Of a stretch of DNA of 11,347 bases, positions 1 to 3,000 are shown in pieces. Made by a program: the position numbers. Every line of letters starts with the position of its first letter. The first letter of the stretch is position 1. Source of the DNA: a virus (lineage: Duplodnaviria; Heunggongvirae; Uroviricota; Caudoviricetes). The stretch is taken from IMG/VR virus record IMGVR_UViG_2713896784_000017. One strand, 5' to 3'.

Positions 1-3000
1 TTTTTCCTGCAGGGATTTCACCCGACTGGCCTGTTCATCAATCAGCCGGTTCTGCTCTGTCAGCGCCGCCCGTGTTCGTCCTTCATTATCTGAGGCTTCA
101 GGCAAAGACATTGACGGCGTTTTATGCGCGATTTCATCTATCGTCAGTGCATACTGGCGCGCAGACTCCCTGGCCTGCTCCTGATTCTGGTACAGCGTGT
201 ACCATGCTGCAGCCCCCAGCATCACCAGTCCGGGTACGCCACCAACCAGCCCCAGCGCACCGCTCATCAGACGTGAGCCCACCGCCGTTGTACTGTTCAG
301 CGCATTCTGGGCGGCGCTTCTGGCAGCAATATTTCTGTTCAGGCGTTCCTGTGTGGCCGCCAGACGGGCCTCTGCAGCAATCTGCATCTCCGTCCCGCGG
401 GCTGCCGCCACGGCCTGCTGAGCACGGTACACGGCTGCCCTTGCCCGCGCCGTGGCAATCTGCGTTCCCCTGAACTGTGCTTCCGCCAGTGCAACTTCAT
501 TACGTGCAGCCGTCACAAGTCCTGCCGTGGCAGACATCGCTCCGGAGGCCATATTGCCAAAGTACCGGGCAACCCCGACGGCAACCAGCGCGCCCACGGC
601 TGTTGCCACATTATCAATCTGTCCGGCAACACCGTTCAGCATGCCGGAGAGCGTTTTTGTCACCCCGCTGGCCTCATTCGCACCGCCCACCCAGGCCATA
701 AAGGCGTTTTCCACCTTTGTGATACTACTGGAAACCGTTTCCGGCATGGCCGCATATTCATCACGTAATATCCCCAGCTGGCTGATTAACGCGGGGACCA
801 CTTTATCCGCTGTCAGTTTTCCGTCATCCGCCATTGCCTTCAGATCTTTACGGGCCACGCCCATACCCGCAGCCAGTGCACGTACGATCCGGTCACCACT
901 TTCATTGACCGAATTAAACTCCTCACCACGCAATACACCCTGCGCCAGCGCCTGACTGAACTGGGTGATCACCGAGCCCGCCTCTGCCGTACTGGCACCG
1001 GAGATTTTCAGCCCTGTCGAAATGGCCTCCGTCACCTTCAGCACATCATCAGCACTGTAACCATATTCACGCATCGAGGCAGCCGAACGGGCAAACAGGG
1101 CCGCATTATCCGAAAATGCGGTGCCTGTCCGCTGGCTGATATCCATCAGCACTTTCTGTGATGACGCAAATTCATCGGATGACTGTGATGCCTGTTTCAG
1201 ACGGGCATTCACGGAGCTCCATTCATCCGCCAGCGAAATCAGGTGTCCGGTGGCAAAGGCACCGGCAAACGCACCGGTCATTCCGACAGCCGAAGCGCGG
1301 ATTTCCGTCAACTGGCTGTGCAGCTCAGCCAGAGCCCGGCGCTGCTCCCTGGCTGCCGCAGCAGCCTGACGTCCGCCATTCTGCAGGGTCCGGTAATATT
1401 CACTGCCCATACGGGACGCCCGCTGGATCTCCGACTGGAATGACTGTGAATTTGCCGAAATTTTGATAATCAGTTCACGTAACGTCGCCATTCACCTTTC
1501 TCCGGGCGTAAAAAAACCGCCTCAGCGGTTCTCATCATTCATGACTGTGCTGCAAGGCTCAGCGCGTCTTCCAGCGCCGCAAACGGATCCACCTCCGGCT
1601 TATCCTCATCCTCGCCCCAGCAGAGCATGGCGTCCTTCAGTGCAACATTCATCCCCTGTGCCCCGAAAACCGCTTTCACGATCTGTGCATTACGGATATC
1701 CCCGCGCTCATCACCCAGCGGGGATATCCTGTCGAACTCCATCCACATCATCGCCTCGCTCGCACTCAGGCTGTGGCGCAGTTCGGATAAGGTGCGCCCC
1801 AGACGGAGCGCAAGTCGCATCAGAAAGCGAATTTCCGGGCGGGCTACTTTTTTCTGGCCGACTCTGCATCAGCGATCAGTTCCAGTGCCTGACGCAGCAA
1901 CCGGGCATGTACCGGACCATAGACGGCCAGCACCTGCTCACGGTCGTCCGGAGTGAACACCCGCTGCAGGTCCGTATCACACAGGACATCGCAGAACAGC
2001 GTCACATCCGCTTCCAGGTTACGGCGGGTTTTCGCCACCACCGACAGGGTATCGTCATCCTCTCCATCACCATTGAGCACTTCCTGCCACAGATACCAGG
2101 CCTCTGCCGAAGGCTCCCGCAGCACCACGCTGACATTACCCCATTCCGGCACCTTCACCGTTTTATGACGAAACCCTGACAGTCTGGCCAGCGCCAGCGT
2201 TTTCAGATCCTTTTTCATGATGACCCATCCCCTTATCCGGCGGCAGCGCTCACTGTCACGGTGCATTCAACAGACGTCACACTCTGTGCTTTCTCTGCCG
2301 AATCGGTCACCACACAGGTATATTTCCCCGCATCAGCGGACTGCGCACCTGGCTTACTGAAGGTGTCTGTCGTCTGCCCGTCAACCGGCTGACCATCCTT
2401 CTTCCAGGCGTATTTATACGGCGGCGTTCCCCCGTTGGCACTGACTGACATTGTCAGCAGCGCACCGGTATTCACGGTAAGTGTCTTATCCAGATTTTTC
2501 ACAAACGCCAGCGGTACCACAAAGGACACCGGTTTGCCTTTCAGACGCAGTGAGAACGTTGCAGCCACCACGCCGTTGGTACCGGATGACCAGGTGTGCT
2601 GGCGCACTTCCGCCAGGAATTTAAAGCCCTTACCGGACGGAAACAGCACCTTAAACGCATACAACGCGTCATTGTCATAGGCATCACGCAGGGCGTTCTG
2701 GGCCTGATTCAGATAAAAATTGCCCGACATGGAAATCTCAGACGACGCCCCCAGACCATTGATGTTCTCCTGCTCTGTGGAGCAGAGCGTGGTCACATCA
2801 ATATCCTGTTTCTGCCCGGCGGTGAACTGCACTTCCTTGATGGTGCAGTCCAGGCGCAGATATTCCGCCTTATCCATAGTTTCAGCAGTCGCCGGGGCAG
2901 ATGAAATCATCACCTGCGTCAGCTGTGAGCGTTCATACAAAGCAGACATTCTGCCTCCTGATAATAAAAAACCCGCACGCGGCGGGGTATGGGTTTTGTA

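Follow-up and report, generated by a model that had tools for sequence, protein, structure and literature searches.

Terminator-type hairpins precede the capsid, major tail and tape measure genes in the late operon of a lambdoid Escherichia coli prophage module

The analyzed stretch of 11,347 nucleotides (hereafter the window) carries a lambdoid E. coli prophage module with approximately 96% identity to Stx-converting phages, and three short hairpins with U-tracts stand directly before its capsid (site A), major tail (site C) and tape measure (site B) genes. These elements are probably conserved, sense-oriented intrinsic terminators within the late morphogenesis operon, which would stop unmodified RNA polymerase and be passed by Q-modified polymerase. 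The sequences show the anatomy, placement and conservation of the three sites; the termination, its suppression by Q and its physiological purpose are inferred.

Gene identities were assigned by PHROG matches, and the coding strand of the module is the minus strand. The widest true intergenic gaps of the window measure 63, 65 and 47 nt and hold the three elements; the remaining module genes overlap or abut. On the head side, 63 nt separate the terL stop (9224-9222) from the GTG at 9158 of the downstream capsid gene, a protease/major-capsid fusion of 645 aa with an AGGAGG ribosome binding site (9169-9164) ahead of its start codon (9158-9156; together 9156..9169). Relatives align at this start as ..CAGGAGGC..ATG ACG CTT... 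On the tail side, the stop of the T frame (1541-1539) and the ATG at 1491 of the tape measure gene are 47 nt apart, and the Shine-Dalgarno sequence is GGAG (1503-1500; with the ATG at 1491-1489, 1489..1503). The tape measure gene matches PHROG 339 starting at residue 1. A conserved hairpin devoid of a U-tract in this lineage lies 3' of the capsid gene (7206-7185), and a scan of the portal region for tandem repeats gave no hit in the window.

Site A (9171..9197, minus strand) was recognized in the sequence and by the terminator scan. It reads (G)AACCGC-UGCG-GCGGUU(U) and is composed of AACCGC (9196-9191), the loop TGCG (9190-9187) and GCGGTT (9186-9181), with a T run at 9182-9176 (7 U in total), followed by an A and by the TTTT that ends the 9175-9171 stretch. 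The stem comprises 6-7 bp (4 GC) below a tetraloop, the MFE is -12.9 kcal/mol (z -2.5), and the capsid GTG follows after 22 nt. Site B (1510..1530, minus strand), recognized in the sequence, reads AACCGC-UGAG-GCGGUU with 7 U in total (AACCGC 1530-1525, TGAG 1524-1521, GCGGTT 1520-1515, T run 1516-1510). Its stem of 6 bp, or up to 9 bp if G-U pairs are counted, also carries a tetraloop and has an MFE of -11.4 kcal/mol (z -1.95). Both hairpins had been reported by the initial annotation at 1510..1530 and 9171..9196, and we find them there on the minus strand. Its description of one stem with differing loops holds as well, as A and B differ by one loop base and are identical in 23 of the 24 nt of AACCGCTGNGGCGGTTTTTTTA. 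The notation GCGGUU-U7, however, overcounts the U residues by two, because the run of seven T already includes the two T able to pair with AA. Likewise, the short spacers before a ribosome binding site are present at both sites, with AGGAGG at A, but calling the site strong is generous for B, where the Shine-Dalgarno sequence is only GGAG.

Site C (2966..2986, minus strand) had been overlooked and was found by the terminator scan. This hairpin, CCCGC-CGCGU-GCGGG followed by U6, has five GC pairs and a pentaloop and lies in the gap between the tail-terminator and major tail genes; 3' of it follow AUUAUC-AGGAGG (AGGAGG at 2959-2954) and the ATG at 2949 of the major tail gene. The scan also returned a weak accessory hairpin just upstream, GUCAC-GGU-GUGAC with U5CU6 (3002..3026, minus strand), which overlaps the tail-terminator stop codon. 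This part is doubtful, with an approximate d-score of 5 and an MFE indistinguishable from that of shuffled sequences (z -0.18). GCGGTTTTTTT occurs a third time, at 9239-9229, but there it is just C-terminal coding sequence of terL, ending AVFFI-stop here and QVFFI-stop in relatives, and no significant fold was found at this copy.

With regards to termination, the three sites share the expected anatomy. Each has a GC-rich stem with a short loop inside the range of approximately 5-14 bp, although at its short, weak end, built from a core of 4-5 GC pairs that is lengthened by A-U or G-U pairs and closed by a tetra- or pentaloop. A run of 7 T (A and B) or 6 T (C) follows directly 3' of the stem. 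The d-score, a discriminant of the d'Aubenton-Carafa type combining hairpin energy and T-tail, is positive at 35 (A), 20 (C) and 4.6 (B), where the threshold is approximate since the score was recomputed with ViennaRNA energies, and the value for B is borderline, barely over it. On the coding strand, four sites score positively versus 0.04 expected in Markov-1 random sequence, and all four fall in the gaps holding A, B and C; the opposite strand of the window contains no positive-scoring terminator-like site. The core hairpin energies range from -4.5 to -7.5 kcal/mol with short stems, and the termination efficiency of the sites may be low.

Translation of the upstream genes bears on whether such hairpins could form. 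A terminating ribosome ceases to block a terminator approximately 27 nt from the stop codon (PMC4824070), and with stop-to-stem distances of 24-25 nt (A, past terL) and 28 nt (C) these two sites are near or above this limit. Site B, in the gap between T and the tape measure gene, lies 8 nt past the stop of the T frame. In the lambda G/T arrangement, the T frame is read by frameshifting ribosomes only. By analogy with lambda and with the HK97 annotation, the T frame 5' of B would also be read only by frameshifting ribosomes.

A hairpin that ends one transcription unit ahead of the promoter of the next can be dismissed for A, B and C. The coding strand of the window yielded no sigma-70 promoter-like site, and only 18-27 nt, too little room for a promoter, separate each hairpin from the start codon of a downstream gene that has its own Shine-Dalgarno sequence. 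Therefore, the three sites do not mark where one transcription unit ends and another begins.

The near-identity of A and B raises the question of whether they are copies of one dedicated module, either a mobile or duplicated cassette maintained by gene conversion or a protein-binding palindrome. The initial annotation had taken the repetition of one element at two sites as a sign of such a module, and the resemblance is indeed beyond chance: the pattern AACCGCN4GCGGTTTTT has two exact sense-strand matches versus 0.01 expected, and a few further bases just upstream agree as well, ATGA(G)AACCGC. However, the search it had proposed for AACCGC-N4-GCGGTT-T7 elsewhere returned solely A and B across 115 fetched loci, which included 46 kb of a complete relative. 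Moreover, the variants assort independently, as each of three forms of A occurs with both forms of B among 37 related loci, and in Stx2a_WGPS2, Sakai Sp10 and others site B has the stem CCTGC/GCAGG, with site A unchanged. In other genera, different stems occupy the same places. Within each hairpin the changes are compensatory, and the T-tract is one-sided; together, these two properties fit an RNA structure and not a symmetric protein site. On this comparison we rejected both the protein-binding palindrome and the mobile repeat, and the dedicated module, largely refuted by these sequences, is hardly credible to us. Given the unique motif, the independent variants and the differing stems in relatives, the similarity is that of minimal enterobacterial terminators; judged from this comparison, A and B are nearly identical through parallel use of a minimal CCGC/GCGG terminator design.

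The conservation of the hairpins across relatives supports the terminator reading. At site A, 108 loci with 38 distinct sequences were examined, and the hairpin is found in nearly all of them. The position is occupied by a hairpin with a T-tract in Enterobacterales, Hydrocarboniphaga, Snodgrassella and Marinobacter, with stems of CCGC, CCCGC, GCCCG or CCCCGC and loops of TGCG, TCCG, TTCG, GCAT and others. The RNAalifold consensus for A is a 7-bp stem with double changes at two pairs, a modest covariation because the CCGC/GCGG core is nearly invariant. Compensatory stem changes are also seen at sites B and C, including a paired T...A insertion in CCTGC/GCAGG; in the sister Stx phages and Sakai Sp10, site B reads AAACCTGC-TGTG-GCAGGTTT (RNA AAACCUGC-UGUG-GCAGGUUU). 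Sakai Sp10 carries a matching module, and Sakai Sp15 (the Stx1 phage) was rejected as a carrier, as its head module is of another, lambda-like type. Positional homologues with other stems occur for B in Enterobacter, Kluyvera, Phytobacter and Kosakonia, and for C in five related loci (L002, L003, L005, L008 and L009). More distant relatives have stems of CCCGC, CCGCC, GCCCGC or CCCCGC at matching positions. Hence relatives from other genera carry a hairpin with a U-tract at the same three boundaries, although stems and loops differ, and 5-8 T directly 3' of the stem are kept at A, B and C in almost every relative. In alpha-proteobacterial relatives, the element is wholly absent.

Several known systems resemble this arrangement. 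The HK97 record (NC_002167) lists putative terminators, which are predictions only, at 3309-3335, 6692-6719, 8398-8422 and other positions. Those at the portal|protease, tail-terminator|major-tail and gp15|tape-measure boundaries match A, C and B, respectively. The element at 6692-6719 precedes the homologous major tail gene (MSALYE) and is the counterpart of C, while that at 8398-8422 precedes the homologous tape measure gene (MATLRE) and is the counterpart of B. GC hairpin, T-tract, Shine-Dalgarno sequence and start codon follow the same layout, but the stems differ (AACCCGCC-AGAT-GGCGGGTT, ACCCGC-TATCAA-GCGGGT and GCCCCG-AAATAA-CGGGGC). The HK97 head-side element comes after the portal gene owing to a different gene order; in our window, the portal gene follows the fused protease and capsid. 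Consequently, A, B and C are no new type of element, such signals being already annotated at the same HK97 boundaries. Lambda has GCCGC-CTGT-GCGGC-T7 in the gap between D and E, just 5' of the major capsid gene E. The terminator tR' differs in being a regulatory terminator beside its promoter, whereas A, B and C are located 10-20 kb further downstream and are not known to be regulatory. In T7, the incomplete terminator T-phi after the capsid gene raises capsid mRNA relative to the downstream genes. T-phi likewise sits at a major structural gene boundary of a long late transcript, but its logic would here lower the expression of abundant genes, since our elements precede them. The P22-like phage L has predicted Rho-independent terminators within a late operon that is transcribed from a single promoter under antitermination control; there, the virion module is that of a podovirus, and the terminator is placed where the procapsid module ends instead of 5' of the capsid gene (PMC8022706). 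Its authors considered partial termination or the stopping of polymerase that started without antitermination, and called the roles unknown (PMC8022706). Regarding experimental work on late-operon terminators, our literature search gave only this comment on phage L and PMC4824070.

The initial annotation had proposed that terminators inside the operon fit a Q-type antitermination, and this proposal gains from the terminator anatomy, the sense-only orientation, the location in a late structural operon and the Q gene found upstream in close relatives. The Q dependence rests on these relatives, because the window, which ends in terS, contains no Q gene, late promoter or qut site. In Stx2a_WGPS2, which is approximately 96% identical over the window, a Q-like gene, terminator-like hairpins, stx and the lysis genes precede this module in that order on one strand, and the control of Stx phages by PR' and tR' has been described (PMC7547250). 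Given the anatomy, the sense placement in the late operon and the Q context of the relatives, passage by antiterminated polymerase only is the most economical reading. RNA polymerase that was left unmodified at the late promoter would pause on the U-tract, the GC-cored hairpin of 6-7 bp would fold, and the transcript would be released. Such polymerase could have leaked past tR', initiated at an internal or moron promoter, or read in from host sequence in the lysogen. With this release, the structural genes would stay silent unless Q is made; polymerase carrying the phage Q from PR' would pass the terminators and transcribe the whole operon. In the resulting mRNA, the same hairpins would probably also act as 3' exonuclease barriers for the upstream segment. 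However, such a fail-safe role does not alone account for the exact position of the sites, each beside a Shine-Dalgarno sequence and 5' of a gene for one of the most abundant proteins (capsid and tail tube) or for the tape measure, and the more dangerous lysis genes are upstream of all three sites.

This placement would suit hairpins that act mainly in the finished late mRNA and set the stoichiometry of the structural proteins, with termination being incidental, an explanation we regard as possible yet unlikely. The hairpins might be 3' exonuclease barriers that bound stable segments for packaging, head, tail tube and tail tip; they might, after RNase E cleavage, be 5' stem-loops that stabilize the capsid, tail-tube and tape-measure messages; or hairpin and U-rich leader might together form an unstructured, S1-friendly ribosome loading site. 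It is consistent with these variants that the hairpin always lies 18-27 nt ahead of the start codon of a gene with its own Shine-Dalgarno sequence, at the very gaps of a module that is otherwise closely packed. A similar placement recurs before lambda E and in the non-orthologous tail modules of other relatives, where a hairpin with T7 is found directly 5' of the major tail (PHROG 158) and tape measure (PHROG 2854) genes. Furthermore, hairpin A stays with the capsid gene in three loci (L025, L026 and L028) whose upstream terminase is only 22-26% identical. The conserved hairpin 3' of the capsid gene points to the use of RNA structure in this operon, and terminator hairpins have been reported to increase the stability of upstream mRNA (PMC11696848). 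On the other hand, a stabilizing hairpin needs no U-tract, yet 5-8 T are kept at all three sites in almost every relative; the hairpin at 7206-7185 has none while A, B and C keep theirs, so the tract is not an automatic by-product of a hairpin. In addition, a barrier just ahead of the capsid gene would shield the message for terminase and not that for capsid, and RNase III would require far longer hairpins.

A related and broader suggestion would be that siphovirus late operons have a conserved punctuation, made of hairpin and U-tract directly ahead of the genes for polymerizing proteins and the tape measure, with a mainly post-transcriptional role. Stable mRNA segments or a U-rich ribosome loading site would then help to set the stoichiometry of the virion proteins. 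This family and, by position, HK97 have such elements ahead of all three (capsid, tail tube, tape measure), whereas lambda has one only 5' of E. We consider this generalization to be rather improbable.

The hairpins could also be the 3' ends of Hfq-binding sRNAs that originate in the 3' portions of terL, T or the tail-terminator gene, similar to IsrK or to the sRNAs of EHEC prophages, which encode many of them (PMC4104026, PMC13502914). A hairpin followed by U6-7 is the usual Hfq 3' module, and IsrK (RF01394, from the Gifsy-1 prophage) has the same terminator core, CCGC-loop-GCGG-U6. Our Rfam scan of the window, run at a permissive E-value, gave isrK matches at 1510-1577 (23.7 bits) and 2966-3068 (18.2 bits). 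Both are far below the gathering threshold of 50 bits and consist mainly of the terminator stem, and membership in this family was rejected; the body of the IsrK RNA is not conserved here, and its genomic context is different. No promoter-like site for such transcripts was found on the coding strand. According to the main text of one study, the principal prophage sRNAs are encoded at the moron insertion site downstream of PR' (PMC4104026). One mapped sRNA, HnrS (EcOnc10-12), is flanked in Sp10 by the Rz and DUF3950 genes, outside the module. An origin as sRNA 3' ends is thus, in our estimation, very unlikely.

Among 5426 complete E. coli genomes, 1313 contain the prophage module, frequently in multiple copies, and many Stx-converting phages have it as their virion module. 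Why antiterminated phage operons contain terminators is a recognized, if small, open question (PMC8022706), for which this module family offers three well-conserved and easily mutated sites. If the terminators work as proposed, they would provide an extra insulation that silences the structural genes in lysogens, and late expression would be strictly Q-dependent, which bears on the tightness with which the late transcription of prophages and of Shiga toxin is controlled.

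Two near-identical hairpins, each running into a T tract and differing in one loop base, are present in the window as the initial annotation described, and the observation is real and non-random. On the coding strand (5' to 3'), site A in the gap between terL and the capsid gene reads AACCGC-TGCG-GCGGTT (9196-9181), and its T run occupies 9182-9176 ahead of A and TTTT; site B between the T frame and the tape measure gene reads AACCGC-TGAG-GCGGTT (1530-1515), its T run spanning 1516-1510. The notation GCGGUU-U7 used for them counted two U twice, because each run is seven T long altogether. 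The pattern AACCGCN4GCGGTTTTT gave two exact sense matches versus 0.01 expected, and the predicted folds reached -12.9 kcal/mol (z -2.5) for site A and -11.4 kcal/mol (z -1.95) for site B. Site A lies 24-25 nt behind the terL stop and is followed by AUUUUC-AGGAGG-CUGAU-GUG, while site B lies 8 nt behind the stop of the T frame, the frameshift-dependent extension of chaperone G, and is followed by ACGCCC-GGAG-AAAGGUGA-AUG. Consequently, the strong ribosome binding site claimed for both elements applies to AGGAGG at site A, but the GGAG in the leader of site B is only moderate. A third GCGGTTTTTTT at 9239-9229 was rejected as a further element, as it is C-terminal coding sequence of terL (ending in AVFFI before the stop; QVFFI in relatives).

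All genes of the window are encoded on the minus strand, with PHROG support for their identities: terS (11308-10880), terL (10883-9222), a prohead-protease/major-capsid fusion of 645 aa (9158-7221), a 73-aa ORF behind it (ATG at 7176), the portal gene (4565-7009 region), head-tail adaptor Ad1, head closure Hc1 and a Neck1/gp10-like protein, the tail terminator (3359-3015), the major tail protein (2949-2233), chaperone G with its T extension (1820-1539), and the tape measure gene (ATG at 1491), which extends past the window end. In the tail-terminator/major-tail gap, a third element of the same type, site C, had been overlooked (CCCGC-CGCGT-GCGGG-T6, 2986-2966, then ATTATC-AGGAGG-CAGA-ATG), and the sequence 3' of it is very similar to that following site A. 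A simple, purpose-written terminator scorer (hairpin energy per nucleotide plus weighted T-tail, after d'Aubenton-Carafa, with ViennaRNA energies) returned four positive scores on the coding strand, namely 35 for A, 20 for C, 4.6 for B and 5 for a weak hairpin near C (3026-3014), and no positive site on the opposite strand of the window, with 0.04 per strand expected by chance in random sequence of the same dinucleotide make-up. All four fall within the three widest genuine intergenic gaps (63, 65 and 47 nt); the remaining genes overlap or almost abut. The weak hairpin, GTCAC-GGT-GTGAC followed by T5CT6 (3002-3026, minus strand), overlaps the tail-terminator stop codon and folds no better than shuffled sequence; being located 28 nt upstream of site C, it creates a tandem terminator-like arrangement. 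The coding strand of the window showed no sigma-70-like promoter.

This copy of the module has a broken portal gene. A 593-aa ORF aligns with positions 1-564 of the PHROG 2271 profile, which has 859 positions, and two more fragments (5255-4986 and 4936-4565) are in different frames. From the same start, the ORF spans 861 aa in 10 related loci and 454 aa in 17; in many Stx phage records, two portal CDSs are annotated. Internal repeats of about 162 nt in the complete Stx phage relative Stx2a_WGPS2 correspond to the C-terminal part, and the break suggests frame changes driven by repeats, a prophage that is defective, or an error in assembly.

Capsid-gene relatives were compared in 29 genomes of other species and 80 viral contigs. 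Hairpin, directly adjoining T-tract and ribosome binding site were found at site A in all Enterobacterales loci as well as in Hydrocarboniphaga, Snodgrassella and Marinobacter; the element was absent in the alpha-proteobacterial relatives among the fetched loci. Its stems (CCGC, CCCGC, GCCCG, CCCCGC) and loops (TGCG, TCCG, TTCG, GCAT, CACG and others) vary, and the RNAalifold consensus is a 7-bp stem with two pairs changed on both sides and a nearly invariant CCGC/GCGG core. As the element is kept even where the upstream terminase is just 22-26% identical, it moves together with the capsid gene. Sites B and C carry a hairpin and T-tract at the same place in every locus sharing the tail module, with other stems (e.g., ACCGCC-GGAA-GGCGGT, GCCCGC-GCT-GCGGGC, CCCCGC-GCAT-GCGGGG). 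Close E. coli relatives show site B either in the window form or as AAACCTGC-TGTG-GCAGGTTT, a compensatory paired insertion; E. coli Sakai Sp10 combines the latter with the same site A as in the window. Where relatives have a different tail module, terminator-type hairpins again stand directly before the major tail (PHROG 158) and tape measure (PHROG 2854) genes, and some also before the chaperone or a minor tail gene. In five loci (L004, L007, L011, L014, L028), the 3' flank of the hairpin is alike before non-orthologous major tail and tape measure genes (about T7-AYGCCYGGAG; T7-ACGCCCGGAG at window site B, 1501-1516), which could stem from a common origin of the leaders or from a favoured context for translation initiation.

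Elements of this kind are already annotated in well-studied phages. The GenBank record of HK97 lists putative terminators in the late operon at portal/protease (3309-3335), after the capsid gene (5192-5213), at tail-terminator/major-tail (6692-6719), after the major tail gene (7443-7462), directly before the tape measure gene (8398-8422) and further downstream. In both phages the major tail protein starts MSALYE and the tape measure MATLRE, so sites C and B are positional homologues of annotated HK97 elements; for the protease/capsid gene, the portal/protease element of HK97 has its analogue in site A. Lambda (NC_001416) carries GCCGC-CTGT-GCGGC-T7 (6101-6121) in the D/E gap directly 5' of the major capsid gene E, the same placement as site A, and more terminator-like elements around J and lom. 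For phage L, partial termination or a stop of transcription begun without antitermination was suggested for intra-operon terminators (PMC8022706). The terminator and antitermination reading of the initial annotation is reasonable and agrees with what phage annotators proposed for homologous sites.

Long-tailed Stx1a/Stx2 converting phages are 95-96% identical to the window across 97-99% of its length, and 1313 of 5426 complete E. coli genomes contain related DNA, with a median of five places in each. In Stx2a_WGPS2, the module lies downstream of a Q-like antiterminator gene on the same strand, with terminator-like hairpins, tRNAs, stx2 and lysis genes in between. A published multicopy prophage sRNA, HnrS (EcOnc10-12), maps outside the window to the Rz spanin/DUF3950 gap just upstream of the terminase genes in the same prophage type (Sakai Sp10, NC_002695.2, about 1946819-1946867; 14242-14266, minus, in L030).

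It is established for lambda that Q-modified polymerase is resistant to terminators. The best-supported prediction is that sites A, B and C are genuine intrinsic terminators acting conditionally: unmodified polymerase from tR' leak-through, internal or moron promoters or host read-through would be released, while Q-modified polymerase would read past. In Stx lysogens, PR' is constitutively active and terminated at tR' (PMC7547250). As a rival or additional function, the hairpins may act post-transcriptionally, by delimiting segments as 3' barriers, by stabilising 5' ends left by RNase E cleavage or by offering U-rich sites for ribosome loading, and the hairpin-to-start-codon distance is constantly short (18-27 nt). 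Termination is favoured over a purely RNA-level role, because the U-tract is kept at all three sites but is missing in this lineage from another conserved hairpin, behind the capsid gene, because the elements occur on the sense strand only, and because the stop-to-stem distance at A and C (24-28 nt) is close to the spacing of roughly 27 nt above which terminators escape suppression by a terminating ribosome (PMC4824070). The HK97 annotation and lambda G/T suggest, by analogy, that few ribosomes translate the T frame before site B. The conditional-terminator model leaves unexplained the exact placement in front of the capsid, tail-tube and tape-measure genes, the constant spacing to the start codon, and the way hairpin A moves with the capsid gene.

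That conserved hairpin behind the capsid gene, which lacks a U-tract, occupies 7206-7185. It is a strong GC hairpin of 9-10 bp, ACGGGAGGCG-TG-CGCCTCCCGT (gap region 7185-7212, minus), flanked by an SD-like AAGGAGG (7212-7206) on one side and the 73-aa ORF's ATG on the other, and the layout of GGAGG, GC hairpin, about 7 nt and ATG is kept with different stems in relatives of many genera. Its HK97 positional homologue is an annotated putative terminator. The hairpin could join the halves of a split ribosome binding site, an arrangement described for genes 38 and 25 of T4, or stabilise the capsid message at its 3' end.

That repetition at two sites marks a dedicated module is not supported. In a set of 115 loci, with 46 kb of a complete relative among them, the exact motif matched at sites A and B alone. 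In the 37 loci with both sites, three A variants each pair with both B variants, so there is no concerted evolution, and the window's own combination is in the minority. The CCGC-loop-GCGG-U6 design is generic: the Rfam isrK model includes a terminator with the same core, which accounts for its sub-threshold matches at sites B and C (23.7 and 18.2 bits versus a gathering score of 50). An old duplication may lie behind sites A and B, but nothing requires one. Sites A, B and C belong to an ordinary, already recognised class of features with a putative function.
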